NCBI GenBank assembly: GCA_024653945.1
Contig: JANLIT010000002.1
Coordinates: 146,508 to 210,507 of the forward strand
Direction: 5' to 3'
Origin: Candidatus Campbellbacteria bacterium
GTDB taxonomy: Bacteria; Patescibacteriota; Minisyncoccia; Phycocordibacterales; EsbW-18
DNA length: 64,000 bases
The notes beneath the pieces were generated by a model. That model was not told the DNA's origin. It ran no database searches and saw only the letters and a list, made by a program, of their open reading frames with translations. A program made the position numbers and the translations under genes. Below are positions 1,797 to 64,000 of this stretch, piece after piece. Each line of letters opens with the position of its first letter. Position 1 is the stretch's first letter.

Positions 1797-1849
1797 TGTG
1801 TTACGTGCTATATGTTACATGCTACATGTTATATGCTACATGTTACATG
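1797..1849 (+). repeat. Tandem ~14-nt repeat TGTTACATGCTACA (x3.5) ending in the start codon of the SpoU gene
   Basis: Sequence ttacgtgctatatgttacatgctacatgttatatgctacatgttacatgaac. Related copies occur at 9505-9547 and 36753-36850. Confidence 0.7.
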
Positions 1850-2302: not shown

Positions 2303-2312
2303 ATGACGTCCT

Positions 2313-2340
2313 CCCCGCAGTAGCCTGCGGGGTTTCCTGT
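2313..2340. terminator. Rho-independent terminator hairpin
   Basis: Inverted repeat ccccgcag tagc ctgcgggg followed by tttcctgtt. Confidence 0.6.
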
Positions 2341-2418
2341 TACATTAAAAAAGGACCGCAATGCTTCGCAGTCCCCAGAATGCGGGAGGGTGTTACCCCT
2401 CTGCACGCTCTTGTCGTC

Positions 2419-2712: not shown

Positions 2713-2789
2713 ACATACCTCCTCAGCCAAGTGGCCGAAAGTTGACTTCTGGAAGCACTGTAGAGTATTTAGTGTCTTACGTCAAGTAT

Positions 2790-3764: not shown

Positions 3765-3812
3765 ATAAAGTAGAGGTTGGAAGTTGGATATGGGAAGTTG
3801 GAATGGGGGTGA

Positions 3813-6162: not shown

Positions 6163-6211
6163 TTTGTGCGGTGGTATTGTCTCGGCAGATTCAACCAAGG
6201 GGAGAAACGCC

Positions 6212-6544
6212 ATGGGGAAGACTGTGTGGTATATCAAACCGAAGAATGGACATACCTCGGAAGCAGTCGGGAGAGTGACTTCCGACGAGGACCTGCGTTA
6301 CGAAATAAGATGCTCCGATGGGGTTAAGAGGAATCTTTACCGATGTGAGTGGGGAGTCCTCGAGACCGCCTTGGGCTCGGCGGAGAACATCTATCTTCAC
6401 TTCAATGTCTGGAGACAACGGGGGACCAGTCTTCCGGCGCCCTTTGATCCACGAAAGGTGTTCGTGGGGAAGGAGCCTCCTAAGGTTCAAGCACGTACAT
6501 GGCTCGCCAAGCAGAAGGCGCGCAAGGCCGCTCACACGTCGTGA
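6212..6544 (+). CDS. Hypothetical small basic protein (GC-rich ORFan with SD)
   Basis: AAGGGGAG lies 7 nt upstream of the ATG (MGKTVWYIKPKNGH...). GC content is well above flanking genes. A hairpin terminator overlaps the stop codon. Confidence 0.5.
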   Translation: MGKTVWYIKPKNGHTSEAVGRVTSDEDLRYEIRCSDGVKRNLYRCEWGVLETALGSAENIYLHFNVWRQRGTSLPAPFDPRKVFVGKEPPKVQARTWLAKQKARKAAHTS

Positions 6545-17274: not shown

Positions 17275-17294
17275 CCTGCCTGCCGGCAGGCAGG
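17275..17294. repeat. REP-like perfect 20-nt palindrome CCTGCCTGCCGGCAGGCAGG (copy 1 of 4)
   Basis: Flanked by ggaagttagtgg / gggatgttggaagttgg. The other copies are at 20019, 57524 and 59219. Confidence 0.75.
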
Positions 17295-18544: not shown

Positions 18545-18811
18545 TTTTCCCAAACAAAATTAAAAAACATTAGTTTTAAAGACGCAGATATTGAAGGAAT
18601 TGTGATAGACAAAAACTCACTCAACAGTATTACTGTCAATACGGGGCAGGCCCTATATCTTGCCACACTATTGGGGTTTAAAATTGAAAATTAGGTCTAA
18701 AAAATTTATTTTTTTAAAACATTGCTCTTACTGGTAATTAGGAATACTATCCTCACCAGAAGAAATTGTTCCTCGTCAGCTTCACCCCACCACCAACCTA
18801 GGAGACGTGAC

Positions 18812-19498
18812 ATGAGCGTGAGTGAGAAGGTTATCGTAGCCACAGACGAGCTTCCTCTCGGTGCGTGCTTGGATTTGGCGCGCGCCATCGGGCAACAGGT
18901 CTATGCGTTCAAGGTTCACAACCTGTACGATATGGACCCGTCCATCGTCACCCAGCTTCACAAGGCAGGTGCGCGACGCGTCTGGGTTGACGCGAAACTT
19001 CACGACATCCCGAACACGGTCAGGCTTCGTGCTCAGGCATTCGCCGACGCAGGTGCAGACATCATCACGGTGCATGCATCGGGTGGTATCGAAATGATGA
19101 TGGCCGCACTTCAGAGCGGTATTCCCGAGATCTTTGCGATTACGGTTCTCACCTCTCTCTCGGAAGAGGAGACGCATCTATTACATGGGCAGCCGTCCAA
19201 GGCGGCAGTGCTCTACCTCGCGCGCATGGCCAAGCTTGCCGGCATGCAAGGTGTTGTCTGTTCGCCGAAGGAAGTCGGCATTCTCTCCAAACGTCCCGAG
19301 CTCAAAGGTCTCACTCTCGTGACGCCGGGAGTTCGTTCCGTCGGTAAGGATGCCGGCGACCAACAGCGTGTTGATACGCCCCTCGCGGCACTCAACGCCG
19401 GTGCGTCCTACCTCGTTGTGGGTCGCCAACTCACAAAGGCGCCCGATCCTGTCGCCGCTCTCGCCCAGCTCGAAGAAGAGATCGCCGAGGTAATCTGA
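18812..19498 (+). CDS. pyrF: Orotidine 5'-phosphate decarboxylase
   Basis: VIVATDE, DAKLHDIPNTV (the D-x-K-x-x-D-I-P-x-T signature), VHASGG. AGGAGACG SD. GC content is clearly higher than the window average. Confidence 0.8.
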   Translation: MSVSEKVIVATDELPLGACLDLARAIGQQVYAFKVHNLYDMDPSIVTQLHKAGARRVWVDAKLHDIPNTVRLRAQAFADAGADIITVHASGGIEMMMAALQSGIPEIFAITVLTSLSEEETHLLHGQPSKAAVLYLARMAKLAGMQGVVCSPKEVGILSKRPELKGLTLVTPGVRSVGKDAGDQQRVDTPLAALNAGASYLVVGRQLTKAPDPVAALAQLEEEIAEVI

Positions 19499-19958: not shown

Positions 19959-19981
19959 GAACTTTTGCAGAACAAAAGTTC
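19959..19981. repeat. GAACTTTTG-cagaa-CAAAAGTTC palindrome (inverted-orientation copy of the pilB/pilC upstream element)
   Basis: The reverse complement region tccgtacctgaacttttgttctgcaaaagttcag matches 33494-33529 and 35436-35467. Confidence 0.65.
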
Positions 19982-20018: not shown

Positions 20019-20038
20019 CCTGCCTGCCGGCAGGCGGG
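20019..20038. repeat. REP-like palindrome, degenerate copy (cctgcctgccggcaggcggg)
   Basis: One mismatch relative to the 20-nt consensus. Confidence 0.6.
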
Positions 20039-20204: not shown

Positions 20205-20399
20205 ATGAAGTACCAAGACTACATACAATATATAGATAAAGAGATTGAGGCCCTTAACTGGACTATTGATGAAAAAATAATGCAAGGAATTTCGTATCGT
20301 TCTGAAGCAAAGAGACACAAAGAGCTGATACGGTGGGCACGACGCAATCGTCGTCCATCACTTTTTAAAAGACTTTCATCAGTCATGGCACTCTTTTAA
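20205..20399 (+). CDS. Small basic protein co-transcribed with lexA
   Basis: 64 aa. Its stop overlaps the lexA start (TAATG). It lies downstream of the SOS-box promoter. Confidence 0.45.
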   Translation: MKYQDYIQYIDKEIEALNWTIDEKIMQGISYRSEAKRHKELIRWARRNRRPSLFKRLSSVMALF

Positions 20400-20971
20400 T
20401 GCTTACCGAGTACACACAAAAACTTCATTCGTTTTATGAAAAGAATAAACGAATGCCAACGTATACAGAGATGGCGAAGCTTTTCGGTTTTAAATCTAAA
20501 AACGCAGTTTTTAAAGTTGTTGAAAAACTTGTTGAAGCGGGTGCAGTAACCAAAGATTATCTCGGACGTCTCACACCAACAATGCTCTTTGGTGAAGTAA
20601 AAATGCTCGGCTTCATTGAGGCGGGTATTCCGTCACCAACAGAAGAACACGAATTTGATTCTCTTACGCTTGATGAGTGGCTCATCAACGATCACAATGC
20701 GACATTCATTCTTAAGGTAAAAGGGGACTCCATGGTGGACGCGGGAATTTTTGAAGGAGATTTCGTACTTGTTGAACGCACCGACACATGGAAGGTGGGG
20801 AATATTGTGGTTGCTGACATTGATGGGTTGTGGACACTCAAATATTTACGTCGTAATGCAGAGGGCTACTATCTCCAACCGGGAAACAAAAAATATCAGA
20901 ATATCTATCCCCAAGAGGAACTCAAAATTGGTGCAGTGGTCCGCTCGGTGATTCGACGGTACGAAAAATAG
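20399..20971 (+). CDS. lexA: LexA repressor
   Basis: N-terminal winged HTH, Ala-Gly-type linker, S24 peptidase domain with GDSM (catalytic Ser) and Lys (VGNIVVADIDGLWTLK). Confidence 0.85.
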   Translation: MLTEYTQKLHSFYEKNKRMPTYTEMAKLFGFKSKNAVFKVVEKLVEAGAVTKDYLGRLTPTMLFGEVKMLGFIEAGIPSPTEEHEFDSLTLDEWLINDHNATFILKVKGDSMVDAGIFEGDFVLVERTDTWKVGNIVVADIDGLWTLKYLRRNAEGYYLQPGNKKYQNIYPQEELKIGAVVRSVIRRYEK

Positions 20972-33502: not shown

Positions 33503-33529
33503 CCGAACTTTTGTGTTACAAAAGTTCGG
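33503..33529. promoter_or_regulatory. CCGAACTTTTGTGTTACAAAAGTTCGG palindrome with conserved flank, upstream of pilB
   Basis: ctccgtaccccgaacttttgtgttacaaaagttcggtgaaaataca is near-identical to 35436-35480 upstream of pilC. Confidence 0.6.
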
Positions 33530-33578: not shown

Positions 33579-35327
33579 ATGCACTTTGATTTACAACAAC
33601 TCATTCAGTTTCTTGTTGATACAAAAATGCTTTCCCTTGGTAAGGCGCAAGAACTTGAAAAACGGGCCCTCGAGCAAAAAATGTCGTTTGAGGATCTCGT
33701 TGTGTCCGAGGGAATTATTCCTGAAGATGATTTGCGGAGAGCAAAATCGCACGTTCTCGGCATTCCATTTGTTGATTTAAAGAATGAAAAAATAGATTTC
33801 AAAACACTGTCGCTCATTCCTGAACCGATTGCTCGTTCAAATAATGTTGTTGCATTTCGTGTTACGGGCACAGATTTAGAGGTTGCCATGTTGGATGTGC
33901 AGGACCTTAAGGCAATTGACTTCATAAAAAAGAAAACAGGTCTTAGCATCCTTCCGCGTCTTACCGATGTTGACTCAATAAAAAATGCACTCATTCAATA
34001 CCAACGAAGTTTGAAATTGGAGTTTGGTGATATTTTGAAAAATGAGGCAGCTGCACTTTCTGCTACATCGGGAAGTGTTGGTGAAAATGCCTCTGGAGAA
34101 ACACTCAAAAAGTTAGCCGAAGATCTTCCCGTGGTACGTATTGTTGAAACGCTTATCCGCCACGCGGTTGTTGAGGGTGCATCTGATATTCATATTGAAC
34201 CCATGGAAAAGGATTTGCTTATTCGGTACCGCATTGACGGACTACTTCATGATGCAATGACCTTACCCAAACAGGTTTCGGCCGGAATAGTCGCGCGCAT
34301 TAAGGTGCTTTCCAATTTAAAACTTGATGAAAAACGACTACCACAGGATGGACGATTTAAAATGGACATTGAAAGTGAACGTGTGAGTTTTCGTGTTTCA
34401 ACACTTCCTATTTACTACGGAGAGAAGATTGTGATGCGTATTCTTCACGAAGGCGCATCCGGTTTTACACTTGAAACACTCGGTTTTCACGGAGAAGGAC
34501 TTGAAGCGCTCCATTGGGCAACAAAGCAGGCAACGGGATTGATTCTTGCAACCGGTCCGACTGGGTCAGGTAAGACAACGACCCTGTATACAGTTTTGGA
34601 TATTCTCAACACACCAGATGTAAACATTTCAACCATTGAAGACCCAATTGAGTATCAGATGCCACGGGTAAATCAGACGCAAGTAAAACCAGAAATAGGG
34701 ATGACGTTTGGAAATGGATTGCGCGCACTTGTTCGTCAGGACCCGGATATTATTATGGTGGGAGAAATTCGTGATGGAGAAACGGTCGGACTTGCAATCA
34801 ACGCCGCATTGACCGGACACCTCGTACTCTCAACAATTCACACAAACTCCGCAGCTGGTGCGGTGCCAAGAATGTTGGACATGGGTGCGGAACCATTTCT
34901 TATCGCATCTACGCTCAAGGTCATTGTTGGTCAGCGTCTTGTGCGTGTTCTTGCACGAAAAGAAAAATATTCTCTGTCTGCGGATGAATTAAAAGCGCTT
35001 GGTAAGTCAGTTGACCTTGATCGCATGCTCGGCTTTCTTATAACCGAAGGATTGGTTGCAAAGAACGCAACGTGGAAAGAAGTTCCGTTCTATCGTCCAA
35101 AAGAAGTGAAAGACGGAGATGATGGATACAAGGGGCGTATTGGTATTCATGAGGTGCTTAAGGTTTCAAGTGCACTACGCGAACTTATGATTAAACGTGC
35201 CTCAATGGAAGAAATGGAAAATCAAGCAAAGAGCGAGGGAATGATGACGATGATTGAGGACGGTGTCTTTAAGGCGGTTATGGGTTTGACGACCCTTGAG
35301 GAGGTGTTGCGTGTGGTTACCGAATAA
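33579..35327 (+). CDS. pilB: Type IV pilus assembly ATPase PilB (GspE family)
   Basis: GPTGSGKTTTLY Walker A, Asp/His boxes, N-terminal GSPII_E domain. 582 aa. Confidence 0.9.
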   Translation: MHFDLQQLIQFLVDTKMLSLGKAQELEKRALEQKMSFEDLVVSEGIIPEDDLRRAKSHVLGIPFVDLKNEKIDFKTLSLIPEPIARSNNVVAFRVTGTDLEVAMLDVQDLKAIDFIKKKTGLSILPRLTDVDSIKNALIQYQRSLKLEFGDILKNEAAALSATSGSVGENASGETLKKLAEDLPVVRIVETLIRHAVVEGASDIHIEPMEKDLLIRYRIDGLLHDAMTLPKQVSAGIVARIKVLSNLKLDEKRLPQDGRFKMDIESERVSFRVSTLPIYYGEKIVMRILHEGASGFTLETLGFHGEGLEALHWATKQATGLILATGPTGSGKTTTLYTVLDILNTPDVNISTIEDPIEYQMPRVNQTQVKPEIGMTFGNGLRALVRQDPDIIMVGEIRDGETVGLAINAALTGHLVLSTIHTNSAAGAVPRMLDMGAEPFLIASTLKVIVGQRLVRVLARKEKYSLSADELKALGKSVDLDRMLGFLITEGLVAKNATWKEVPFYRPKEVKDGDDGYKGRIGIHEVLKVSSALRELMIKRASMEEMENQAKSEGMMTMIEDGVFKAVMGLTTLEEVLRVVTE

Positions 35328-35444: not shown

Positions 35445-35467
35445 GAACTTTTGTTGTACAAAAGTTC
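35445..35467. promoter_or_regulatory. GAACTTTTGTTGTACAAAAGTTC palindrome with conserved flank, upstream of pilC
   Basis: gctccgtaccacgaacttttgttgtacaaaagttctgtaaaataca. Confidence 0.6.
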
Positions 35468-45577: not shown

Positions 45578-46195
45578 ATGTCTCACGACACGCTCGGCAG
45601 AACAGTTGTGGCGTTTATGGATGCCAGCGAGGAGTCCCAGAATCTCATCACCGATTTTGCGGAGAAGCTCATGAATCCTACCCCCGAGTGGGTTCGAGAG
45701 TCAAAACACTTTCTTCGCAAGGAGCCGTGCTGGGTTTCGTATGGGGTGGTTGCCACTCCGATGCTCAACCTCCTCGAGTTCTTCAAAACTCGAGAGGGTC
45801 TCGGGGTCTCGTGGGAGTTTAAAGAGCAAATTCTCGCTCCAGCGCTCGCGATGGGGGGCGACTTGCTGGCAACGGTTGGCACGCCGTTTGACCTGCCGAA
45901 GGACATGGACGAGGGCGAAATCCGCAAGGAGCTCGGCGAGAACCATGTCTTCGAAGATGCTCGCTCGTTCTGCCTCTACCTTGCCAGCGCTCTCGGGCGT
46001 CAGTGGGACGGCAAGGATGGGGACTTCCTGACCAATGGGAGCGCGAACACCTTCTATGTTTGCGGACTCAACGGTGAGGTCTTTGTGGTCGACGCCTACT
46101 GGAGCACTGACGACAGCGGGTGGAGCGTGCTAGTGTATTACTTAGACACCATTCGCTGGGATGCAGGTGACCGTGCCTTTCCCTGCAGTTCCTGA
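45578..46195 (+). CDS. Hypothetical protein (GC-rich ORFan with AAGGAG SD)
   Basis: 205 aa. No recognisable motifs. GC content higher than the flanking recJ/rnhA. Confidence 0.45.
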   Translation: MSHDTLGRTVVAFMDASEESQNLITDFAEKLMNPTPEWVRESKHFLRKEPCWVSYGVVATPMLNLLEFFKTREGLGVSWEFKEQILAPALAMGGDLLATVGTPFDLPKDMDEGEIRKELGENHVFEDARSFCLYLASALGRQWDGKDGDFLTNGSANTFYVCGLNGEVFVVDAYWSTDDSGWSVLVYYLDTIRWDAGDRAFPCSS

Positions 46196-47119: not shown

Positions 47120-48607
47120 ATGCCGAGTATTTTTGTATATGCTGGAGTCATTGGTTTTCTTGTGGGTGTTGCGGTGAGAAGTGTGTTTGAGGTGCCAATG
47201 ATTTTTGAGGTTTGTGTGGGAATTGTTGGAGTCTGTGTATGTGTGGCAGGTGCCGCACGGCGCGGGAGTACCCGCGCCGTGCTCTCGTGTGGTATCTGTT
47301 TTGTTCTTTTTTCTGCTGGGCTCATTCGTGCAGATGTTTCATTTGCGAACGATGGAAATTTCCTTGATGCACAACTCGGACAAACAATAATTGAAGGAAT
47401 TGTTGTCGGTGAGCCCTCGTTTACGGAGAAATCTCAAAATGTGACGCTCAAAGTTTTGCACGAAAAAGAAACAGCACGCGTGAGTATTATTACTTCGCCA
47501 TTCCCTCCGTTTGTGTATGGCGACGTGCTTCGGGTATCTGGAAATCTCAAAAAACCCGAATCATTTGTTACTGATAACGGCTCAACGTTCAACTATCCAG
47601 CGTATCTTGCTAAAGACGGCATTTTTCAGCAGATGCTGTTTCCTATAATAGACATTATTTCACGTGGCAAAGGAAACTTTTTGTATCGCGCGTTGTTTTC
47701 TGTTCGACGACGGTTCGTTGATACTGTTGCCACACATCTACCCGAACCGAACGCATCACTCCTTTCAGGAATTTCTATTGGTGCAAAAGATGGTATGGAT
47801 GATGCAACAGATGAAATGTTTCGGCGGGTGGGCTTGATTCATATTGTCGTGTTATCTGGATACAACATTACGGTTGTGTCAGATACGGTGATGCGACTTC
47901 TCTCGTTTTTACCACGTGCGTTTATGTTGGGAGGGGGAGGTGTGGTGGTACTTTTATTTACTATTATGACTGGTGCAACGGCCACAGCGGTTCGTGCAGC
48001 AAGTATGGCAGTGCTCGCGCTTCTTGCTCGAATAGTGGAAGCGAAATACGACATTGTTCGCGCGCTGTTTCTTGTTGCGTTTGTGATGGTTCTACACAAT
48101 CCGCGCGTACTGCTGTTTGACCCGTCGTTTCAGCTTAGTTTTCTGGCGACGTTTGGGCTCATCACACTTTCACCGATTATTGAGAAAAAACTCGCGCGTG
48201 TTACCAACACGTTTTCATTGCGTCAAACACTTTCTGCAACACTTGCCACACAAGTATTTGTGGTACCACTATTGGTACATATGAATGGGCAGGTGAGTTT
48301 CATTTCGCTTGTTGCGAATGTTGTTGTGTTGCCAGTCATTCCGCTCTCCATGTTTTTCACGTATCTTTTGGGTGGTATTGGTCCATTTGTAGCACCAGTC
48401 GCAACACTTCTTTCATTTCCAACATTTGTTGTTTCCGAATACATTTTGGAGGTAAGTGACTTTTTCTCGCGTGTACCCTTTGCATCAGTTGATGTTGGTT
48501 TGCATCCTGCCATACTCCTTGTTGTGTACAGTGTACTTCTCTGGTGGATTTGGAAACAACAACACCCACCAAAGAGGCGGGTGTTGGGTGACAACCAGAA
48601 TGTGTAG
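47120..48607 (+). CDS. comEC: ComEC/Rec2-family DNA internalisation channel protein (no lactamase domain)
   Basis: N-terminal DUF4131-like TM/OB region. Competence domain with DDATDEMFRRVGLIHIVVLSGYNITVV and multiple TM helices. Confidence 0.75.
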   Translation: MPSIFVYAGVIGFLVGVAVRSVFEVPMIFEVCVGIVGVCVCVAGAARRGSTRAVLSCGICFVLFSAGLIRADVSFANDGNFLDAQLGQTIIEGIVVGEPSFTEKSQNVTLKVLHEKETARVSIITSPFPPFVYGDVLRVSGNLKKPESFVTDNGSTFNYPAYLAKDGIFQQMLFPIIDIISRGKGNFLYRALFSVRRRFVDTVATHLPEPNASLLSGISIGAKDGMDDATDEMFRRVGLIHIVVLSGYNITVVSDTVMRLLSFLPRAFMLGGGGVVVLLFTIMTGATATAVRAASMAVLALLARIVEAKYDIVRALFLVAFVMVLHNPRVLLFDPSFQLSFLATFGLITLSPIIEKKLARVTNTFSLRQTLSATLATQVFVVPLLVHMNGQVSFISLVANVVVLPVIPLSMFFTYLLGGIGPFVAPVATLLSFPTFVVSEYILEVSDFFSRVPFASVDVGLHPAILLVVYSVLLWWIWKQQHPPKRRVLGDNQNV

Positions 48608-49033: not shown

Positions 49034-49125
49034 ACAACAGTAATGATTATGTAGTAATTATTAAACGACACCCGTGTACGAATGTCGTTTATAGTATATC
49101 TGATATTGCTGTAGTTGCCACAAGT

Positions 49126-49989: not shown

Positions 49990-50580
49990 ATGAAATCAAA
50001 AATTCTAGCAAGCTTTCCAAGTTTTTCAGCCAAAGTATGTGCTTTCGGTCTTATTCACGTATTAACGTTTGGTACAGGTGTTAATCTTCTCTCAAATCCA
50101 TCCGTTGTTACGGCTGCGATTGCAGGGGATGAGGCAACACCGGTCGTTGATGTACAGGATGAAATTTTGTGGTTTGCCCGAGCTATTTATTCGGAAACCA
50201 AAGTTCCCGCTGAGCAAACACTCGTTGCGTGGGTTATTCGTAACCGTGTTGAATCAGGCAAGTTCCGCGACACCTACAAAGGAGTAGTGTTACAACCCGG
50301 TCAGTTTTCAGGATTTTCTTCTGTTGACGCGCAGTATGGTATTAACTCATCACTGACACTTGAAGATGAGAATCCTTCATGGAAAAGTGCGGTTGCAATT
50401 GCGGAGGCGGTGTATGTTGCTAATCCAATATTACGCCCCTTGTCTGCAGATGTGCTTCACTTCTATTCACCAATTTCTGTTGTGAATACCCCAAAGTGGG
50501 CGCAAGGACGTGACGCAGACCACGTGGTTCGCGATATGCGAGGAAACGCACGTTTTGCCTTCTACGCCGATATACTATAA
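49990..50580 (+). CDS. Cell-wall hydrolase, SleB/CwlJ-like (Hydrolase_2 family)
   Basis: Signal/TM then FARAIYSETKV...EQTLVAWVIRNRV...YKGVVLQPGQFS. Confidence 0.55.
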   Translation: MKSKILASFPSFSAKVCAFGLIHVLTFGTGVNLLSNPSVVTAAIAGDEATPVVDVQDEILWFARAIYSETKVPAEQTLVAWVIRNRVESGKFRDTYKGVVLQPGQFSGFSSVDAQYGINSSLTLEDENPSWKSAVAIAEAVYVANPILRPLSADVLHFYSPISVVNTPKWAQGRDADHVVRDMRGNARFAFYADIL

Positions 50581-50593
50581 ACAAAACAAAACC

Positions 50594-50625
50594 ACCCCGC
50601 ACATTTCTGTGCGGGGTGGTTTTTG
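50594..50625. terminator. Rho-independent terminator
   Basis: accccgcacatttctgtgcggggtggtttttg. Confidence 0.7.
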
Positions 50626-50698
50626 TATACAAATTGCTTTTCTTCTGCTATACATGCAGATAGGTTTGGTCTTTTAATCAACGAATATGGAGGGTGCC

Positions 50699-52027
50699 AT
50701 GGTTCAAACACTTCGTCGTGTGGCAGCAAAGGCCCGGGCGGTACGGTCAGAAGACCTCTTTTACTGTCCTGTCCATCGGTCTAGAATTAGTGTTGGGGCA
50801 TGTAAGGCATTCTGCTCTGTTCCGCAGAACAACACGGAACGGTGCACGAGGGAGTTTCACTGCGAGTCGCCGTGGCGACTCTGCTGGGCGTGTCTTCTGA
50901 ACCACGGTTTAGGAGAGAGGGGTGGTGTGGCAGAAAACAAGGACCGCGGACTCTGTGATTTTCATCTCAAGAACGGTATTGAGAAGCGTCCCGATTGGGC
51001 GCCAAAGAGAGATGGAGAAAGCGGGCACGGTTCTTCTATCGACGACATCTCAGACCGTATCAGGAGTCACTCGCACACGGCGGGGGGTGGAGGAAGCGGT
51101 ACAGTAAAGACACAGAAGACTATCCATCTCGTCAAAGGGAAACAAGTTCCCGTCGACACCGTTCTTGAAGTTGACTGTGCGCTGGTAGTTCCTCTGAGTG
51201 AACAGCCACGCACGTACTTCGACAAAGATGAGCTCGAGGGTCTCCTCAACTCAATTGCCGAAGCGGGGCAGATTCAGACCGTTCCGGCGGTTTCACTTCC
51301 CGACGGCACATTCCGCATTCGTGATGGTGAACGACGGTGGCGAGTGTGCACGAAGCTCAAGCGTCCGCTACGTGTCGTTGTCGTTCCCGAGCTTCCTCAT
51401 GAGGAGGAGATTGAACAGGCGGCAATCGCAAACTTCCTTCGGCAAGGTCACACACCGATTGAACAAGCGCGCATCTTCATGCGACTCAAGGAAGGACCGC
51501 TGAAGCGCACCGTCGCGAAGATTGGTCAGATGTTTGGCATGACGACCGCGAGCGTCTACAACCACCTCATCCTCATCGAGAAGCTCGACGTGCGCGTTCA
51601 GAATCTCATGGATCCGGTGAAGCAGGGAAGTTCAAAAGCAATCCTGCGTCCCTCGGTGGCTCAGTATCTCACCGCATTTCACGAACGTCCTGAAGAGCAG
51701 GTGGGGCTCGCGCGAGAAATTATGAAGCGCAAGCTCAACCTGCGCGAAGCAAAGACCTTGATCGACAAGTATGCCGACAAGCTCAAGATCAAGACGGGGC
51801 GTGGGCGAGAGGCACAACCGTATGACCACATCCGGACTATCAAACGGACGATGGCAAACACCAGTATCGTTCTCGATCGGTTCTCGGAATTCTCCGACGA
51901 CGATTGGGAGCGTCTGTGGAAGACGCACTCATGGACCGAGCGGGAACTTGTTGCCAATCGTTTGACCACGCTCATCAAACGACTACAGGAGCTCCAAGGT
52001 CACGTTGACCGGACGCTCAAAGGTTAG
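50699..52027 (+). CDS. ParB-like nuclease-domain protein with N-terminal 8-Cys cluster (GC-rich island)
   Basis: N-terminus CPVHRS..C..C..C..C..C..C..C. ParB_N motif FRIRDGERRWRV. HTH TVAKIGQMFGMTTASVYNHLIL. GGAGGG SD. GC far above the window average. Confidence 0.65.
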   Translation: MVQTLRRVAAKARAVRSEDLFYCPVHRSRISVGACKAFCSVPQNNTERCTREFHCESPWRLCWACLLNHGLGERGGVAENKDRGLCDFHLKNGIEKRPDWAPKRDGESGHGSSIDDISDRIRSHSHTAGGGGSGTVKTQKTIHLVKGKQVPVDTVLEVDCALVVPLSEQPRTYFDKDELEGLLNSIAEAGQIQTVPAVSLPDGTFRIRDGERRWRVCTKLKRPLRVVVVPELPHEEEIEQAAIANFLRQGHTPIEQARIFMRLKEGPLKRTVAKIGQMFGMTTASVYNHLILIEKLDVRVQNLMDPVKQGSSKAILRPSVAQYLTAFHERPEEQVGLAREIMKRKLNLREAKTLIDKYADKLKIKTGRGREAQPYDHIRTIKRTMANTSIVLDRFSEFSDDDWERLWKTHSWTERELVANRLTTLIKRLQELQGHVDRTLKG

Positions 52028-52232
52028 TGTGAAGAAGGTCTTTTTGCGGCGCGGTGGGGAAGTCCCTACCGCGTCGTTTTGTTTTTCATACAATATATAG
52101 AGCACACAAAAGACCTTGACTTTTACGTAATTCCAAGTATAATCGTCCTCGGAAGTAGCTTGTAAACTAAGAAACAAAAGAAGTACAAAACTGGAGCATA
52201 CTGCTCCACAACTCTCTCGAAAGGAGAGCAAC

Positions 52233-53462
52233 ATGCGAAAGCTCGCGATAGCGCTGTCTGTCCTCGTTCTCATGATCGTCGCCGTTCCGGCGATGGCATT
52301 CGAGATTACTCCAAACAACCCGATCGACAACGGCAATTTCGCCAAGTCGACGGCGTCGTGCGACGGCAAGTTCCTGATCGGACAGTCCGGTCAGAACAAT
52401 GTTGAAGTGTACACCCACGCGGGTGTCTACCTCAACTCGTTTGGGGCACCTAGCTACCAGCTCTCCGGATTCTTCGGTGAGTCGTTGGCCGTCACTCCCA
52501 ACTGCGCGACGGCCGTCGTCGGCGCCAAGGGGTACGATGGCACCGGTGCCATCTTCGTCTTCGACTGGAACGCATCTCTGGGTGAGTATCAATTCGTCGT
52601 GAAGAAAACGGCGGCGGGGCTCGTCCCGGGCGATGACTTCGGTCAGTCGGTCGCGGTGACCGACGATGGTCAAACCGCCTTTGGCGCGTCGTACCTCAAG
52701 AACAAAGTGTCTTCGTTCGCGCGGTCTGCAAGTTGGACCGAACACGTCGTTTCGATGCCCGATCTTTCGGCTAGCGATTACGCGGGGTTCGCCCTGTGTG
52801 TCGCGGGCGACGACTTGGGTGTCGGTGTTCCTCTGCAGTACAACAGCGGCATTCCCGGTGCACTCTACGTTCACCGAAAAAATACTGGTGGCGCAGGAAA
52901 CTGGGGGTACGTGACCAAGTTCACAGGCCTCGAGCGTCTCGGGTATTCATGCGGAGGGAGCGGACCACGTTTCATCTCCGGCGCTCCGCTTCACAACTTC
53001 GACACACTTCCTCCAGGGTCTGGTGCTGGACAAGGACAGGGTGTTGTGGTGACGTTCCGCCGACACGTCGGCGGGTCGTACACCGTCGAGCATACCTTTG
53101 CCCCCTCGCTCGGCTTCGCCGAGTGCGGTACGTCCGTCGGGATTTCCGGGATCAACGTCATGTTCGGCTGTCCGTACGCGGACGTGGGTTCGGTGGACGA
53201 TGGAAAGTCCAACGCCTTCTCTCGGGCAAACGGTCTGGGGAACTGGACTTCCGAGTTCACCCTGTTCGACAACGACCCACAGGTACTCGATCGTGTCGGA
53301 TTCTCCTGCGCTGTCGGTGGTGGGGAGGGGATTGCCGGTGCGCCGTTTTCCGGTGAGGTTGCTACCAATGCCGGAGCCGCATACTACAACACCTACTCGT
53401 TGGTGTTTGCCGACGGCTTCGAGTACGGCGATACGTTGGAGTGGTCGTCCGCCGTTCCGTAA
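52233..53462 (+). CDS. Secreted FG-GAP-repeat protein (integrin-alpha-like beta-propeller) (GC-rich island)
   Basis: Signal peptide MRKLAIALSVLVLMIVAVPAMA. At least four FG..A....GD..G..D...GAP-like repeats (FGESLAVT, FGQSVAVTDDGQTAFGAS, VGFSCAVGGGEGIAGAPF). AAGGAGAG SD. Confidence 0.6.
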   Translation: MRKLAIALSVLVLMIVAVPAMAFEITPNNPIDNGNFAKSTASCDGKFLIGQSGQNNVEVYTHAGVYLNSFGAPSYQLSGFFGESLAVTPNCATAVVGAKGYDGTGAIFVFDWNASLGEYQFVVKKTAAGLVPGDDFGQSVAVTDDGQTAFGASYLKNKVSSFARSASWTEHVVSMPDLSASDYAGFALCVAGDDLGVGVPLQYNSGIPGALYVHRKNTGGAGNWGYVTKFTGLERLGYSCGGSGPRFISGAPLHNFDTLPPGSGAGQGQGVVVTFRRHVGGSYTVEHTFAPSLGFAECGTSVGISGINVMFGCPYADVGSVDDGKSNAFSRANGLGNWTSEFTLFDNDPQVLDRVGFSCAVGGGEGIAGAPFSGEVATNAGAAYYNTYSLVFADGFEYGDTLEWSSAVP

Positions 53463-53615
53463 GTTTCTTGGTTTTCTTCGCGCCGGGCACCCTTCACAGG
53501 GAGCCCGGTGTTTTTTTATCCAGCACTTATGTTAAGTGCTGGATTTATTTCTTTTGGAGGAGCTAAGCTCCTCCAAACTAATCTGGATTTTATCTCACGG
53601 ATATATACTGAACAC

Positions 53616-54488
53616 ATGCGCTCATGGAAACTATATCTTTTTGCACTCGCGCTTCTTGTTTTTATAACGGGAAGTATTTGGTATGTTGCACACCAATTTG
53701 AACGTGAGCCAGTTTTAACCGTTGCATTTTTAGATATTGGACAAGGCGACTCTATATTTATTGAAAGCCCGTCGGGAAAGCAGATGCTTATTGATGGTGG
53801 TCCAGACAAGCATGTCATACAACAACTCTCTCGTGTGATGCCGTTTTTTGATAGAAGCGTTGATGTCGTTCTCAACACACATCCGGACAAAGACCACATC
53901 GGCGGATTGCCCGAGATACTGCGTCGCTATGATGTGTCGTACGTTATGGATCCAGGAATTGAATCGGACAGTGGAACGTACGGATACTACATACAACTTG
54001 TCGAACAGGAAATACAGAAGGGCGGAAAATATATTGAAGCTCGGCGAGGACAAATAATTAATTTTCAAGATGGTGCATACGTGCGCATTTTATTTCCTGA
54101 CCGTGACGTAAGCGCTGTGACAAACAATAACAATGCATCTATTGTTGTGCAGGTTGTGTATGGAAACACAGAAGTGATGCTGACAGGTGACGCACCACAA
54201 AGTATTGAAAAATATGTGGTGGCGCTTGACGGAGCAACACTCAAGAGTGATATTTTGAAAGCGGGACACCATGGTTCACGAACATCAAGCTCTCCTGAAT
54301 TTGTACGAGCAGTTTCTCCGACGTACGCGATTATTTCTGCGGGAAAAGATAATCAGTATGGCCACCCACACAAAGAGGTTATGCAACTTTTTGCATCATC
54401 AAGCATTCAAACCCTCGCCACATACGACCTCGGTATAATCATTTTTGAAAGCGACGGGAAAACAGTAAAAGTAGAAAGTGGTATGTAG
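53616..54488 (+). CDS. Metallo-beta-lactamase-fold protein, ComEC C-terminal domain-like
   Basis: One N-terminal TM. DIGQGDS, HPDKDHIGG, AGHHGSRTS motifs as in the ComEC lactamase domain. Start chosen at MRSWK because 53508-53600 forms two perfect stem-loops. Confidence 0.65.
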   Translation: MRSWKLYLFALALLVFITGSIWYVAHQFEREPVLTVAFLDIGQGDSIFIESPSGKQMLIDGGPDKHVIQQLSRVMPFFDRSVDVVLNTHPDKDHIGGLPEILRRYDVSYVMDPGIESDSGTYGYYIQLVEQEIQKGGKYIEARRGQIINFQDGAYVRILFPDRDVSAVTNNNNASIVVQVVYGNTEVMLTGDAPQSIEKYVVALDGATLKSDILKAGHHGSRTSSSPEFVRAVSPTYAIISAGKDNQYGHPHKEVMQLFASSSIQTLATYDLGIIIFESDGKTVKVESGM

Positions 54489-54600
54489 TAAGCACAGAAG
54501 TTCAACTCTGCCGGGGTGGGGTTTCCACGGTGAACGGTGTATGGTTTCATACACACGTGCTATTATGTATGGACGTTATTACCTTATCTATATAAACACT

Positions 54601-55260
54601 ATGTCAGAAAAAATAACCAAATATCTCACACCTGTCGTCGCACTGTTCTTCGCAACTGCGCTTGGCGTTACCGCCGCAACTACTATTGGGACGGACATTG
54701 TGACAGGGGGAATCCTTACCGTAACAGGTACTTCAACATTATCGGGGAATATACAGGGACTCGCAGGTGTTGAACAACCCAGAGCCCTGTTCGGCGACAC
54801 TGAAGCAGTTTTGTATGGTGATGGCGCAACACCGCCAAGTATTACTTTGGGTGGAACCGCTGTTTCTCTCTTTAGTCCTGATACTTCATCAAATGTTACC
54901 GTGCAAGATACCTCTGCAAGCATAACCTCAGGACTCGCATCTATTACGGTGTATAGTTCAGATTCCATTTCTATTTCTACCTCAAACCTGCAAGTCCCCG
55001 CCCTTATCACTGCAGGAAACGACACCGTGATTGACGCGGGAGGTGACGGGACAGCACTCTCATTTGATTCTTCTGGTGGTGGTCCGGTGAAGTCAAACGT
55101 CCCTTTTGCCATCCCGTCTGCCGCAACCCTTCCTGCCTGTTCCAGCGGTATTGCACCTGCCGGATTTGCTGCGCTTATGTTGGATACAACCGGCCCCGAC
55201 TTATGTTTCTGTAACGGTACTTCCTGGGCACCCGTTGATGGGACGGGCACGTGCTCGTAA
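54601..55260 (+). CDS. Secreted Gly/Thr/Ser-rich protein
   Basis: Signal peptide, low-complexity beta-rich sequence, C-terminal Cys pair. Confidence 0.45.
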   Translation: MSEKITKYLTPVVALFFATALGVTAATTIGTDIVTGGILTVTGTSTLSGNIQGLAGVEQPRALFGDTEAVLYGDGATPPSITLGGTAVSLFSPDTSSNVTVQDTSASITSGLASITVYSSDSISISTSNLQVPALITAGNDTVIDAGGDGTALSFDSSGGGPVKSNVPFAIPSAATLPACSSGIAPAGFAALMLDTTGPDLCFCNGTSWAPVDGTGTCS

Positions 55261-55397: not shown

Positions 55398-55919
55398 ATG
55401 AAACATATACAAACTCTTGTTTTTGTGGCGATGTTATTTGTTTGTGGTTTTGTTCTTACTCCAAAAACATACGCGACGTTTGACGAGGTCACACTTGAAA
55501 CAGCGGCGATTATTACCGTTGGTGTGTACGATTTAACTATCTATGGAAGCAGTGCCGAAATCGCAAGTATAACCGTTGATGAAAATGATTTTTCAGTTAC
55601 CATCGAGAATGGTTCCGCTATTGTCGTTGCTTCAGCGGATAGGGTTGCTTTTTCACACGACGGGAATGCACTGTATGTAACAAGTGAAGTATGTAGTGAT
55701 ACCGAATCTCGCCTTGGTCTTGCTTCTGCAAGCGACACCACAACAATAACAGTTACTCCTTCAGGAACGTGTACATCTGAATCCGTGGGTGGGGGTTCTT
55801 CAGGAAGGAGACATGTTCTTGTTCCTCAAAATACCCAAACACTTCTCGAACAGTTCCAACTGCAGCTGATTGAGCTTCTCAAACAATATCTTGCGTTACT
55901 CGTGGCCTCGATGCACTAG
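55398..55919 (+). CDS. Hypothetical secreted protein
   Basis: Signal peptide MKHIQTLVFVAMLFVCGFVLTPKTYA. 173 aa. Confidence 0.45.
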   Translation: MKHIQTLVFVAMLFVCGFVLTPKTYATFDEVTLETAAIITVGVYDLTIYGSSAEIASITVDENDFSVTIENGSAIVVASADRVAFSHDGNALYVTSEVCSDTESRLGLASASDTTTITVTPSGTCTSESVGGGSSGRRHVLVPQNTQTLLEQFQLQLIELLKQYLALLVASMH

Positions 55920-57523: not shown

Positions 57524-57543
57524 CCTGCCTGCCGGCAGGCAGG
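57524..57543. repeat. REP-like 20-nt palindrome (copy 3), followed by a T-run
   Basis: cctgcctgccggcaggcagg then gatttttt. Confidence 0.75.
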
Positions 57544-59218: not shown

Positions 59219-59238
59219 CCTGCCTGCCGGCAGGCAGG
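59219..59238. repeat. REP-like 20-nt palindrome (copy 4, inverted flank orientation relative to copy 1)
   Basis: ccaacatcc-cctgcctgccggcaggcagg-taacttccaac. Confidence 0.75.
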
Positions 59239-61514: not shown

Positions 61515-61639
61515 TAGTTGCACGTCGTTGATGATGTGTTACTCTCAACAAAGGTTCTTTTTCTTGGAGACGGGAGGTGCTCATAAAACACCGCAGTGAG
61601 TGCGGCAGTGCGGCAAAACCTGTGAGGATTGCCGTTCGT

Positions 61640-61674
61640 GCGCCAGTGGGTAACCACTGGCGCATTTTCTTTTT
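61640..61674. terminator. Rho-independent terminator
   Basis: gcgccagtgggtaaccactggcgc followed by attttcttttt. Confidence 0.7.
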
Positions 61675-62053
61675 ATTATATTTTTAACAAATTGACTTCC
61701 ATGATAGTGAGGCGTATCGTCGTTTTTAGGCAGTTCTTACAGACAAGTCGGAGAAAGGGCTCCCATGAAGAACCTTTTAAGGGAAACTGCAATTCTCTTC
61801 AAGCTTCTGGTTTTTGTTTCTCTTGCCTTGGTATATGTACTTGTCGTTGGCATTCCTGCCAGCGCAAAACGAGCCTAGGAGCGTTCCCACTAGCACCGGA
61901 GCCGTCCACAGTACGTTCAACTCACCCCGCCAAGGCAGGGTGATTTTTTAACAGTCCAACACACTTTTTACGGTCTTCTAAACGAGATATCCACTGTTAA
62001 GCCATTATTAAGAGAAATGAACTCAATAGTGCTTTATACTTGTAGGTAGCTCT

Positions 62054-64000
62054 ATGAGTCAGCCACTTTTCATTGAAAATAAGAAATTTATATCGACAAA
62101 GGAGGCGTCGAAACTGTCTGGTTATACCAGTGACTATATTGAACAGCTCAGTCGAGCGGGAAAAATCGAGTCAATGCTCGTGGGTCACGTTCGACTTGTT
62201 GAAGAAAAAAGCTTTCTTGCGTTTGTGGTGGGGGCAGAATATAAAGGTTTCGGCACACCTGCCCCCACTCTAGCTTCTGTAGAAGAATTTCCTGTTTTGA
62301 CGGACACACCAGAGACACTTGACGTACCGCATCCAGTCACCACAACTCCTACGCCTGCACACAACATAGCATCACCATATCGTTCTCCTAAAAAACTTCC
62401 AGCAGCCAGCACGCTCGTTGGCATATTTTTTATTTTGCTTGGACTCTTTGCACTTGAAACACATCCTGCATACGCACGCAAAACATATGACACACTCGCT
62501 CGCGTACCACACACGGTTCTTTCTTTAGAGGGAGTTGTTGTGAAGATACTTGCAGATGGAACTCGCGACACACTCAACATGACAGTAAGAGGTTTTGAAA
62601 CGTTTGCACGCACAGCACCACGACAGACATACAACACTCTTGCAGAAGTACCGAACACCGTCCTTACTTTTGTCACACACCCAATAAAAACAATTCAGGC
62701 AGTTGTACAGAACATACACACTTTTGCACGGACTCTCGTTAATATCAACTCTACGATTACGGGCATGTATACCACTGGTGCAGAAAAAACAGTAGCCCTG
62801 ACACTTGGGGGTTTTGATACCGTTGTGAGTGCAACACAACAACTTGCTCGAAACACACAATCGGTTTTCAAGAAAAGCCTTGCAGCTGTCGCGGAAAGTT
62901 TTAATGCGCCAAGTGTGGGCACTACCACACCAAGCACACCAACTTTTTTTGAAAGAATGGGGATTTTTTTTGGAAGAGTACGACTTGCACTACGCTCGTG
63001 GCTTGGTATCACCAATACACCACAGACCGTCATCAATCTGCCCTCAAACACTTCGCCAACCCTACCACCGTCGACAGTGACACAACCAATAGTGCAAGGA
63101 CCAGAGCGCACGATTGAAACACGCACCATCACAACCAATACCGTCTCCGGCATCACTTTTCTCGACATGACGAATGCCATTTCTGGACTTCGCGCAGAAC
63201 TGCTTCCTAAAATTAGAATCGCAGCTCTGTCTCCTGATAATCGTTCTCCCGACAACTTTCTCGAACTCTCCGGCGGTACACTCACGGGCACACTCACCGG
63301 CACATCACTGTCACTCTCAAACAACCTCTCTGCTCTTTCTGCCAACATTGATAGCGGAACCCTCGTTATTGATGACATAAACAATCGTGTTGGCGTTGGC
63401 ACGACCTCTCCAACCGACACGTTATCAGTCAACGGTCCTGTGTATCTTGTAAATACCACCCCAGGAGCAACAGGAAACCGACTCTACTCTGATTCGTTGG
63501 GCGACCTCTACTGGAGTGGCAACCTTGTTGGTGGTGGCGCTGTCGGTACATGGACATCTGCAGGTGGTGATGTGTACCGCCCAACGGGCAACGTCGGCAT
63601 CGGCACCACTTCCCCATATGCCAAGCTCTCCGTTGCAGGTGACCTCGCGCTTACCGGCGGTTTGTATGACAACAATGCAACGCGTGGCACAAACGGTGCA
63701 GTACTCTGGTCAACAGGTACCGGACTCACATGGGTCGCCACCACCACCCTTGGTCTCGCGGGATTTCCTGTCGACTACATCAATTCGTCATCCACGATTG
63801 CCCATGCAGGCAACGCATCACTTGGCAACCTCATCCAGTGGAATGGCAGTGCGTGGGTTGCGACAGCAACATCGACACTCAACGTACTGCACTCGTCTCT
63901 CGCAGGATTACTCACTGACGATCACACCCAGTACGCCTTGCTTGCAGGACGTTCTGGCGGACAAACGCTTGTTGGTGGTACATCTGGCTCGGCGACATTG
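62054..64000 (+). CDS. Large surface protein, partial (3' end outside the window): N-terminal HTH-like segment, one TM, then tail-fibre-like Gly/Thr-rich repeats
   Basis: Open frame from the ATG at 62054 to the window end with no stop. STKEASKLSGYTSDYIEQLSRAGKI is HTH-like. TM LVGIFFILLGLFAL. Repeats of the form VGIGTTSP.AKLSV / VGVGTTSPTDTLSV. Confidence 0.6.
   Translation, partial: MSQPLFIENKKFISTKEASKLSGYTSDYIEQLSRAGKIESMLVGHVRLVEEKSFLAFVVGAEYKGFGTPAPTLASVEEFPVLTDTPETLDVPHPVTTTPTPAHNIASPYRSPKKLPAASTLVGIFFILLGLFALETHPAYARKTYDTLARVPHTVLSLEGVVVKILADGTRDTLNMTVRGFETFARTAPRQTYNTLAEVPNTVLTFVTHPIKTIQAVVQNIHTFARTLVNINSTITGMYTTGAEKTVALTLGGFDTVVSATQQLARNTQSVFKKSLAAVAESFNAPSVGTTTPSTPTFFERMGIFFGRVRLALRSWLGITNTPQTVINLPSNTSPTLPPSTVTQPIVQGPERTIETRTITTNTVSGITFLDMTNAISGLRAELLPKIRIAALSPDNRSPDNFLELSGGTLTGTLTGTSLSLSNNLSALSANIDSGTLVIDDINNRVGVGTTSPTDTLSVNGPVYLVNTTPGATGNRLYSDSLGDLYWSGNLVGGGAVGTWTSAGGDVYRPTGNVGIGTTSPYAKLSVAGDLALTGGLYDNNATRGTNGAVLWSTGTGLTWVATTTLGLAGFPVDYINSSSTIAHAGNASLGNLIQWNGSAWVATATSTLNVLHSSLAGLLTDDHTQYALLAGRSGGQTLVGGTSGSATL

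Follow-up and report, generated by a model that had tools for sequence, protein, structure and literature searches.

A Cys7His-headed ParB/Noc-type gene at a conserved chromosomal position in Candidatus Campbellbacteria

Why should a bacterium keep a gene for a ParB-like protein, with no ParA gene in sight, beside a gene for a secreted beta-propeller in a short stretch of GC-rich DNA? The question is raised by a locus at 50.6-53.5 kb of a 64-kb stretch of DNA (the window, by which we mean the whole stretch analysed) from Candidatus Campbellbacteria, a lineage of the candidate phyla radiation (CPR, or Patescibacteria). The locus holds two open reading frames (ORFs) on the forward strand, here gene 1 (ParB-like) and gene 2 (beta-propeller), and both products are 100% identical to NCBI proteins of a 238-kb Campbellbacteria contig. 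An initial annotation, made from the sequence, had described a GC-rich island of two genes between strong terminators, which the ORFs, RNA folding and GC content, overall and at third codon positions (GC3), bear out; its coordinates and descriptive claims hold with small corrections, namely the start of gene 1 and an extra terminator between the genes (52046-52077) that it had not mentioned. It had further proposed that the pair might serve mobile-element maintenance or defence, or surface adhesion under a dedicated regulator. We reach a different interpretation, in which we place reasonable though not high confidence: gene 1 is the Campbellbacteria member of a chromosomal, ParA-less family of ParB/Noc-type proteins that occurs, as far as named records and genomic contexts show, in the CPR, gene 2 is independent of it, and the GC-rich signature probably derives from exchange between lineages.

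Architecture and orphan status of the gene 1 protein

The gene 1 protein joins a ParB N-terminal domain to a ParB-type helix-turn-helix (HTH) domain, as first annotated, and is recognised by PF02195, PF17762 and TIGR00180, the last at 79.6 bits against a cut-off of 58.45. In residue numbers of the 446-aa frame that begins at ATG 50687, which we use throughout, it carries QPR (173-175), Box I LLNSIAEAGQIQTVPAV, Box II DGERRWR (213-219) and Box III ANFLRQ (248-253). The GERRWR-type motif pointed out earlier (FRIRDGERRWRV) is present, and a check of the motifs for CTP binding found QPR, Box I, GERRWR and the Asn of Box III all kept. The HTH domain aligns with the DNA-binding domains of Noc, ParB and KorB, and we rejected the reading of the protein as a ParB-like nuclease on account of this full ParB/Noc architecture with HTH. 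Beyond the HTH domain lies a region that we presume to be the dimerisation module, modelled by AlphaFold2 (AF2) as helices 378-400, 404-412 and 416-445 with a predicted local distance difference test score (pLDDT) of 79-90 in a monomer model; G371, R372 and D380 are invariant there, and a Pfam scan of gene 1 detects no C-terminal ParB domain (PF23552). A profile of the family matches M. xanthus ParB (7bnk, E 3e-50), Noc (E 1.4e-45), Caulobacter ParB and Spo0J, and weakly KorB (E 2e-12), and a Foldseek search with the AF2 model of gene 1 is concordant with these matches. The NCBIfam models for Noc, RepB and PRTRC score far under their cut-offs, and the Noc model in particular (TIGR04285, 67.4 bits against 315) rules out an assignment of gene 1 to Noc itself.

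The nucleotide switch departs from the canonical one at the first position of Box III. Of 49 family members with a ParB core, 30 have Ala at this position, 9 have Ser and 2 have Glu, and overall the glutamate is missing from about 45 of 50 ParB-core members scored. The Ala of gene 1 falls 33 residues past the Glu of GERR, exactly at the position of E111 in B. subtilis ParB. B. subtilis ParB with E78Q or E111Q no longer hydrolyses CTP but still binds it, closes its gate, loads and recruits Smc, and ParABS-dependent segregation is crippled (PMC8494293); among ParB-like clamps VirB sets a precedent, its CTPase being weak because it lacks one catalytic residue (PMC10770331). Because the Box III Glu is replaced by Ala, CTP hydrolysis by the gene 1 protein is probably slow or absent, a prediction made from a single residue, and its clamps would be long-lived.

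The cluster of eight Cys noted at the N-terminus in the initial annotation proves to be a real and conserved fusion partner of the ParB core. All eight lie in residues 27-90, and seven of them together with His93 are invariant in the family, which gives C27, C39, C53, C59, C66, C69, C90 and H93 as ligand candidates (in four close homologues and also in an alignment of 72 sequences, where N49, R64, G88 and G97 are near-invariant); the signature of this Cys7His family reads C..C..N..C..CxSPWRxCxxC..GLCxFH. An 80-position profile of the domain, run against 1.84 billion cluster representatives, retrieved 134 proteins at E<=1e-3, in which the domain is almost always N-terminal. A ParB core follows in 58 of the 133 representatives that we annotated, and 44 of these extend through the C-terminal helices; by Pfam, the 133 include ParB_N in 50, HTH_ParB in 42, GerE/LuxR in 5, the H-NS C-terminal domain in 2, and assorted HTH domains of Cro/C1 type, many of the remaining representatives being short proteins or fragments. 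By these annotations, the Cys7His domain recurs as the N-terminal head of proteins that bind DNA or associate with the nucleoid.

Modelled by AF2 on the 72-sequence domain alignment, the domain folds confidently into a beta-hairpin and four helices (pLDDT 92.9, predicted template modelling score 0.80); such a model needed the larger alignment, as the Cys domain scored a pLDDT below 50 on an alignment of 9 sequences. Neither Pfam nor the PDB, compared by sequence and by structure, contains a match, so the probable zinc ribbon of the initial annotation gives way to a confident Cys7His fold that resembles no zinc-binding fold described in either database. The domain probably holds two zinc ions, in putative tetrahedral Cys4 and Cys3His sites, the latter formed by CxxC...CxxH at the starts of two helices; an Fe-S cluster may be bound instead of zinc. 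The named records that contain the domain belong to Ca. Campbellbacteria, to "Patescibacteria group bacterium" (P0025, P0026) and to Ca. Paceibacterota (L079). The literature on ParB in CPR, Patescibacteria and Parcubacteria yielded no description of a Cys7His::ParB family, and the head is previously undescribed. In some proteins the domain is doubled or internal (P0026, P0060, P0065, P0111 and P0153); P0026 (L178, 3436-5337) is a 633-aa Patescibacteria ParB with two stretches that match it.

Gene 1 stands apart from any ParA. The deviant Walker A motif of ParA, KGGxGK[ST], occurs in no ORF of the window, and no parA lies near the family gene in 10 other family loci scanned over up to +/-10 kb of available sequence. 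The ParA-binding motif (L/F/I)G(K/R)G(L/F/I), defined as in PMC12704722 and searched as a regular expression, is absent from the gene 1 protein and from the N-termini of the 133 family representatives; the canonical relative P0009 has LGRGL. For canonical parS, TGTTNCACGTGAAACA, the window contains one match with three mismatches (at 34463) where chance predicts 0.68. Two earlier statements are upheld by these results: that no ParA partner is nearby, within 64 kb, and that the locus is not a standard partition module, given the lack of ParA, of canonical parS and of a ParA-binding motif. Gene 1 satisfies the definition of an orphan ParB given by Kaljevic et al. 2025 (PMC12704722). Their survey in PNAS found orphan ParBs fused to lineage-specific domains to be common, and orphan ParBs often to lie on mobile elements; its catalogue of fusions is based on Pfam-A, and its main text does not mention Patescibacteria (PMC12704722). 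Because the Cys7His domain has no Pfam model, Cys7His::ParB proteins would count among the long "single-domain" proteins of that survey.

Chromosomal position, composition and the second gene

In the window, gene 1 occupies a slot between a Hydrolase_2 gene and a gene for a ComEC-type metallo-beta-lactamase (MBL), and a ParB of the family is found in this slot in all five related genomes compared (L009, L001, L002, L179 and L181). What accompanies it differs. The window has ParB followed by the FG-GAP gene (gene 2), and L001 and L002 have an FG-GAP gene followed by ParB. L009 (Campbellbacteria AMX-MBFR-44, GC 53%) has ParB alone, in the order ComEC-N, superoxide dismutase (SOD), Hydrolase_2, ParB, MBL; L179 has ParB with a terminator on each side and Hydrolase_2 upstream, its contig ending before the downstream gene; and L181 has an unrelated membrane protein of 196 aa and then an inverted ParB. 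Synteny between L181 and the window runs through RecJ, RNase H, ComEC-N, SOD, Hydrolase_2, the slot, MBL, M50, S12, S7 and EF-G, and in L181 a dnaA-like gene follows EF-G (fusA), about 7.4 kb from ParB.

The window, L179 and L009 have homologous Hydrolase_2 terminators and ParB leaders. The terminator stem has the same sequence in L009 and a close variant in L179, the leader of L179 conserves the gene 1 block TTCTTCTGCTATACA and that of L009 a part of it, and L179 also has a homologous terminator downstream of ParB. Comparison of the boundaries with relatives, which the initial annotation had suggested, thus finds a left edge (leader and terminators) that is homologous in relatives and not a junction. 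Because the gene sits in the same slot in five relatives with homologous leader and terminators, ParB is, on this comparison of sequences, ancestral at the slot, the variation being confined to the second gene. In the more distant loci L173, L176 and L177 the family gene has lepB on one side and the S1 gene on the other, with ftsA-ftsZ, hisS and gyrA close by; it is flanked by S30AE and secA in L178 and by dus and a ferric reductase gene in L079, and is close to infB in L175, with no parA nearby in any of them. Those family members that are named or whose context can be read are CPR chromosomal genes among housekeeping neighbours.

Neither an integrase nor a transposase, a tRNA or a flanking att-like repeat is found in or next to 50.6-53.5 kb. 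An Rfam scan of the window returned tRNAs only, with nothing in the island, and PADLOC matched neither gene, the neighbours being SOD, a cell-wall hydrolase and parts of ComEC. Among the marks of a genomic island, this interval bears atypical composition alone.

That atypical composition is pronounced. GC content is 55% in gene 1 and 60% in gene 2 against about 44-45% in the window, and GC3 is 0.60 (+2.5 standard deviations) and 0.71 (+3.8) against 0.40 +/- 0.08 in the 62 other window ORFs, an excess which means that the anomaly does not come only from amino-acid content; the earlier remark that both genes lie far above the genome average in GC is correct relative to the 64-kb window. In 5/5 lineages the GC3 of ParB exceeds that of both adjacent genes, Hydrolase_2 and MBL, and the second slot gene, where present, is likewise GC3-rich; in L173, L176 and L178 the family gene is of native composition. 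ParB identity between the window and other genomes is 75% for L179 (flank identity not available), 75% for L002 with 53-58% in the flanks (Hydrolase_2 and MBL), and 55% for L009 with 64-71% in the flanks, and between L002 and L001 it is 55% for ParB and 77% for Hydrolase_2; the ParB tree disagrees with the flanking genes. We interpret the GC-rich signature as probably the product of exchange of slot contents between Campbellbacteria lineages of unlike GC, through homologous recombination at the conserved flanks, and not of insertion of a mobile element.

Gene 1 and gene 2 are separate transcription units, because gene 2 has its own promoter and both genes have terminators (Table 1). Both have canonical Shine-Dalgarno (SD) sequences, as annotated before (GGAGGG and AGGAG, respectively). 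Gene 1 most likely begins at ATG 50699 and so encodes 442 aa, because the SD GGAGGG stands at 50689-50694, the NCBI model P0001 has 442 aa and the closest homologue starts there too; P0001, recorded as a ParB/RepB/Spo0J family protein of Ca. Campbellbacteria, is 100% identical to the gene 1 product.

Gene 2 encodes a signal-peptide protein of FG-GAP repeats, as initially described: PF14312 (FG-GAP_2) matches at 31.5 bits against a cut-off of 23, and by our reading of the sequence a Sec-type signal peptide spans residues 1-22, with MRKLAIALSVLVLMIVAVPAMA and then cleavage before FE, ahead of about six to seven FG-GAP-like blades. P0010 is 100% identical to it, and its remote homologues, at most 31% identical among 5.8 billion proteins, carry PF14312 in 14 cases of 14. 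Its identity to the FG-GAP proteins that L001 and L002 have at this slot is 25-28%; its C-terminal tail, FADGFEYGDTLEWSSAVP, includes an F-x-DGFE-x-G...W motif common to the L002 protein and P0017. Gene 2 thus probably encodes, to judge from these comparisons, an independent and rapidly diverging surface or adhesion protein, one that in our reading does not work together with gene 1. By itself, an FG-GAP gene is ordinary for episymbiotic CPR bacteria, a fast-evolving surface protein.

Table 1. Features of the two-gene locus in the 64-kb window, in 5' to 3' order
Feature	Coordinates	Strand	Evidence and remarks
Intrinsic terminator following the Hydrolase_2 (SleB-like) gene, where the GC-rich stretch has its left edge	50588..50623	+	16-bp perfect stem, then T-run; -30.3 kcal/mol, z -7.8
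Candidate extended -10 promoter of gene 1, TGcTATACA	50646..50654	+	sequence reading
Gene 1, ParB/Noc-type with N-terminal Cys7His	50699..52027	+	442 aa; ORF also open from ATG 50687 (50687..52027, 446 aa)
Cys7His domain, residues 22-98	50750..50980	+	alignments; profile search; AF2 model
Low-complexity linker, Cys domain to CTPase fold, residues 99-154	50981..51148	+	pLDDT <50, poorly conserved
ParB N-terminal CTPase-fold domain	51161..51433	+	PF02195 (ParB_N, residues 159-249), E 1.6e-10
ParB-type HTH domain, residues 256-362	51452..51772	+	PF17762, 23.5 bits against cut-off 22.6
C-terminal helical region, residues 366-446, presumed dimerisation module	51782..52024	+	begins at invariant GRGRE
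Gene 1 intrinsic terminator	52046..52077	+	14-bp stem, 10 GC pairs, then TTTTGTTTTT; -33.9 kcal/mol, z -6.6
Gene 2 sigma-70-type promoter, TTGACT-16 nt-TATAAT	52116..52143	+	11/12 consensus matches
Gene 2, secreted FG-GAP_2 beta-propeller protein	52233..53462	+	409 aa; SD AGGAG 52222-52226
Gene 2 intrinsic terminator, right edge of the GC-rich stretch	53480..53518	+	hairpin 53480-53511, -27.5 kcal/mol, z -5.0, then U7

Palindromes and further observations in the window

Inside the island, no candidate binding site is convincing. The search for parS-like palindromes that the initial annotation had proposed returned canonical parS at chance level and, within the island, palindromes that are terminators, coding or non-conserved. 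Among those set aside, the 18 bp at 50864-50881 form a palindrome that codes for ESPWRL, conserved as a peptide but not as DNA, the hairpins of the MBL leader (53518-53577) are not conserved in relatives, and a 26-nt imperfect inverted repeat around gene 1 (50570-50595 and 52073-52098) looks, like GATATACTATAAAC, to be AT-rich promoter and terminator flanks. Elsewhere in the window, a perfect GC-rich palindrome of 20 bp, CCTGCCTGCCGGCAGGCAGG, occurs in four copies (17275-17294, 20019-20038, 57524-57543 and 59219-59238) where zero are expected, in the 5' leaders of an SDR gene, a lexA-like gene, rpsL and fusA, with flanks that are otherwise unrelated. Its arms recur in L001 (1323-1340, without spacer) and in L175 (3747-3765, with a 1-nt spacer), the latter from another CPR lineage with the family, and in none of 180 other loci compared, most of them not CPR; L001 also has a half-site in the promoter spacer of Hydrolase_2 (1628). 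As a parS candidate CCTGCCTGCCGGCAGGCAGG is a lead only, with half-sites spaced by 0, 1 or 2 nt and copies in leaders of unrelated genes, and the variable spacing argues against a site for a ParB dimer.

A second palindrome, GAACTTTTG-N5-CAAAAGTTC, is present at 19959-19981, 33505-33527 and 35445-35467, three copies against 0.01 expected, upstream of the gene for a LexA-like S24 peptidase (20399-20971) and of genes that include one for a GSGKTT-motif ATPase (33579-35327), which may be PilB/GspE-like; the palindrome is a candidate LexA/SOS operator. The MBL leader, 153 nt from the gene 2 terminator to ATG 53616, contains two perfect hairpins with 12-bp arms, ATCCAGCACTTAtgtTAAGTGCTGGAT (53518-53544) and TTTGGAGGAGCTaAGCTCCTCCAAA (53553-53577), the latter pairing GGAGGA with its complement, and the two folded together give z -6.7; a hairpin in L001 (2391-2421) has the same ATCCAGC...GCTGGAT outer arms. 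The perfect 14-nt inverted repeat formed by GTTTATAGTATATC (49087-49100) and GATATACTATAAAC (50569-50582), about 0.1 of which is expected per 7-kb region, brackets SOD and Hydrolase_2.

The slot itself falls within a divided ComEC, whose two pieces lie about 5 kb apart: 47120-48607 encodes the DUF4131 and Competence parts, and 53616-54488 a transmembrane helix with the metallo-beta-lactamase. The five genes between them encode a 141-aa secreted protein, SOD, Hydrolase_2, ParB and the FG-GAP protein, and the split with SOD, Hydrolase_2 and ParB between the pieces is conserved in L009 and L181. Downstream of MBL, 54478-55260 and 55398-55919 encode two small secreted or membrane proteins without a Pfam or NCBIfam match, which make the neighbourhood one rich in surface proteins. 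Past fusA, 61600-64000 contains no ORF recognisable by Pfam and no Rfam match, with 53.6% GC at 63-64 kb and a change of sign in GC skew. Against the mean GC3 of 0.40, four other window ORFs are also rich (18722-19498, 0.63; 45578-46195, 0.70; 6164-6544, 0.62; 2380-2745, 0.56), the first matching the orotidine monophosphate decarboxylase family (likely pyrF) and the other three lacking a Pfam match, which suggests further small compositional islands in this genome.

Cys-less relatives of the ParB core add a further observation. The closest, P0006-P0008, are 37-42% identical to gene 1 and have the same DGERRW and ANxNR signatures, and one of the closest lies in a phage-like contig. The contig L008 / L093 (JGI Ga0070741_10009426, 1430-4158), phage-like and of 63% GC with a Mu-type portal and an S49 protease, contains two tandem ParB genes, one long and of canonical type (ENLQR, with a Cys-rich C-terminal part) and one a Cys-less DGERRW/ANMNR member of 318 aa with 41% identity to gene 1; a small ORF resembling a zinc ribbon lies directly upstream. 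Because this Cys-less relative sits in a phage-like contig, we conclude that the ParB core of the gene 1 type has also travelled on mobile elements. A metagenome scan found no new locus of the family beyond L008.

Proposed function, alternative explanations and known systems

Taken with what is established for ParB proteins, these observations suggest how gene 1 might act. The protein would be a dimer that recognises a specific DNA site by its ParB HTH and, by homology, binds CTP in its N-terminal fold, and CTP binding would close the dimer into a clamp that slides off its loading site, as expected from the family. With little hydrolysis, as the Box III residue suggests, the clamp would be long-lived and could organise or mark the chromosome, or regulate genes, without ParA; such a role fits because the B. 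subtilis hydrolysis mutants recruit Smc yet fail in ParA-dependent segregation. The Cys7His domain, held on a flexible linker, would replace the ParA-activating peptide and would most likely be a module for nucleoid-associated proteins that recruits partners, oligomerises, or senses redox state or metal, since the same domain heads H-NS-, LuxR- and Cro-type DNA-binding proteins. Any function past that of a site-specific, CTP-gated DNA clamp without ParA is one that we infer. A bolder proposal would make Cys7His a new metal-binding fold, possibly one that senses redox state or metal, at the head of ParB-, H-NS-, LuxR- and Cro-type nucleoid proteins, and gene 1 a hydrolysis-dead ParB clamp with a lineage-specific site that engages a partner such as SMC by way of the Cys domain and replaces ParABS in ultra-small CPR cells; GC-rich palindromes of the CCTGCCTGCCGGCAGGCAGG type, 18-20 bp long, could be its loading site, and they occur in three CPR lineages that bear the family and in none of 180 other loci, most of them not CPR. 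We regard this proposal as unlikely, though worth stating.

Several points weigh against our interpretation of gene 1 as a ParA-less chromosomal clamp. The Q of QPR and the E of GERR, which are the hydrolysis residues of the M. xanthus and Caulobacter proteins, are retained, so that CTPase activity may persist, and we infer CTP binding, the loss of hydrolysis, metal content and dimerisation of the gene 1 protein. No binding site was identified, CCTGCCTGCCGGCAGGCAGG being a lead whose half-sites are spaced differently from one genome to another. The genome may hold a parA, or a second and canonical parB, beyond the 64 kb, and at least one CPR lineage, Moraniibacteriota (L067), has a canonical parAB operon. 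The phage-like Cys-less relative makes a mobile-element origin of the ParB core possible, and the adjacency of ParB and FG-GAP genes in three lineages, in two orders, could reflect selection for linkage.

Were gene 1 an ordinary segregation ParB, with ParA and parS outside the window and the Cys domain a lineage-specific decoration, one would understand why it passes TIGR00180, why its nearest structures are chromosomal ParBs and Noc, and why it is a conserved chromosomal gene in a radiation of which some lineages have parAB. The initial annotation had foreseen a version of this, a canonical parB of native composition beside parA or origin markers in relatives; chromosomal conservation and the proximity of the L181 copy to a dnaA-like gene are as it anticipated, but the gene is never beside parA and its composition is not native in this clade. 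The lack of a ParA-binding motif in gene 1 and in every ParB-core member of the family, of parA in the 64 kb and the 10 other family loci, and of canonical parS, together with loss of the Box III Glu, a change that specifically cripples ParABS in B. subtilis (PMC8494293), leads us to consider it improbable. Slightly lower still do we rate a functional cassette, in which gene 1 would be a clamp regulator of VirB/KorB type that switches the adjacent FG-GAP gene. Weak-CTPase ParB-like regulators exist (PMC10770331), H-NS-type modules bear the same Cys domain, GC3 is high for both genes wherever a lineage has them, and the adjacency persists in the window, L001 and L002 despite the swap in order; set against this are the separate promoters and terminators of the two genes, the absence of a common palindrome near FG-GAP promoters, and the ParBs of distant CPR lineages, which have no FG-GAP gene nearby. 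The surface-adhesion cassette with its own regulator that was first proposed is unsupported on the same grounds, since the two genes are separate transcription units and the FG-GAP gene is downstream in the window, upstream in L001 and L002, absent in L009 and apparently in L179, and replaced in L181 by an unrelated membrane protein beside an inverted ParB.

Least of all do we favour a horizontally acquired island, whether a plasmid or phage remnant or a defence module built on a ParB-like nuclease or CTPase, an account that we judge very improbable. In its favour are a strong GC3 anomaly, the discordance between the ParB tree and its flanks, a Cys-less relative in a contig with Mu-type portal and S49 protease, and the frequent occurrence of orphan ParBs on mobile elements (PMC12704722). 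Against it, ParB occupies this site in all five related genomes, and leader and terminators have homologues in relatives; integrase, transposase, tRNA, att-like repeat and any PADLOC match are lacking; and the architecture is that of a complete ParB/Noc protein, HTH included, not that of a nuclease-type protein with ParB_N only. The mobile-element maintenance or defence module of the initial annotation is therefore not borne out, and it is countered as well by the members in other CPR lineages among ftsAZ, hisS, gyrA, secA and infB.

If our interpretation of gene 1 as a member of a chromosomal, ParA-less family holds, it touches several lines of research. ParB CTP switches are an active field, and the Cys7His::ParB architecture would escape a Pfam-based survey (PMC12704722). 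Most members lack one of the two hydrolysis glutamates of the B. subtilis protein and so provide a natural test of a ParB clamp that lacks ParA and, probably, hydrolysis. The family gives a handle on chromosome organisation and segregation in ultra-small, uncultivated bacteria, and the presence of the Cys7His domain on H-NS-like and LuxR-like proteins points to a shared input or partner.

Among known systems, the chromosomal ParB/Spo0J proteins (M. xanthus 7bnk, Caulobacter 6t1f, B. subtilis 6sdk) share with gene 1 the CTPase fold, QPR, Box I, GERRWR and HTH, at about 28% identity over about 200 residues, and gene 1 passes TIGR00180. In contrast to them, it has no ParA-binding peptide and carries instead a 77-residue Cys7His domain and linker; its Box III reads ANFLR in place of ENLQR, with an Asp ahead of Box II (DGERRW), its C-terminus is helical without being recognised as the PF23552 dimerisation domain, and neither parA nor canonical parS is nearby. 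It resembles the orphan ParBs of Kaljevic et al. (PMC12704722) in being TIGR00180-positive, outside a parAB operon, without a ParA motif and part of a lineage-specific fusion. Gene 2 shares signal peptide and repeats with the secreted FG-GAP_2 (PF14312) beta-propellers and has no recognised anchoring domain (type IX secretion system, T9SS, or PEP-CTERM). Noc (7nfu / 7ol9) has the same fold and HTH as gene 1 and is an orphan paralogue of chromosomal ParB in which, as in gene 1, an alternative N-terminal extension replaces the interaction with ParA; that of Noc is a membrane-targeting amphipathic helix, whereas that of gene 1 is a folded, predicted metal-binding domain, and Noc is confined to Firmicutes and keeps ENLQR. 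VirB, KorB and BisD likewise work without a dedicated ParA cycle, loading at palindromic sites and sliding, but they are encoded by plasmids or integrative and conjugative elements, are relatives of plasmid ParBs and have no Cys-rich N-terminal domain, whereas gene 1 is chromosomal and is nearest to chromosomal ParB and Noc.

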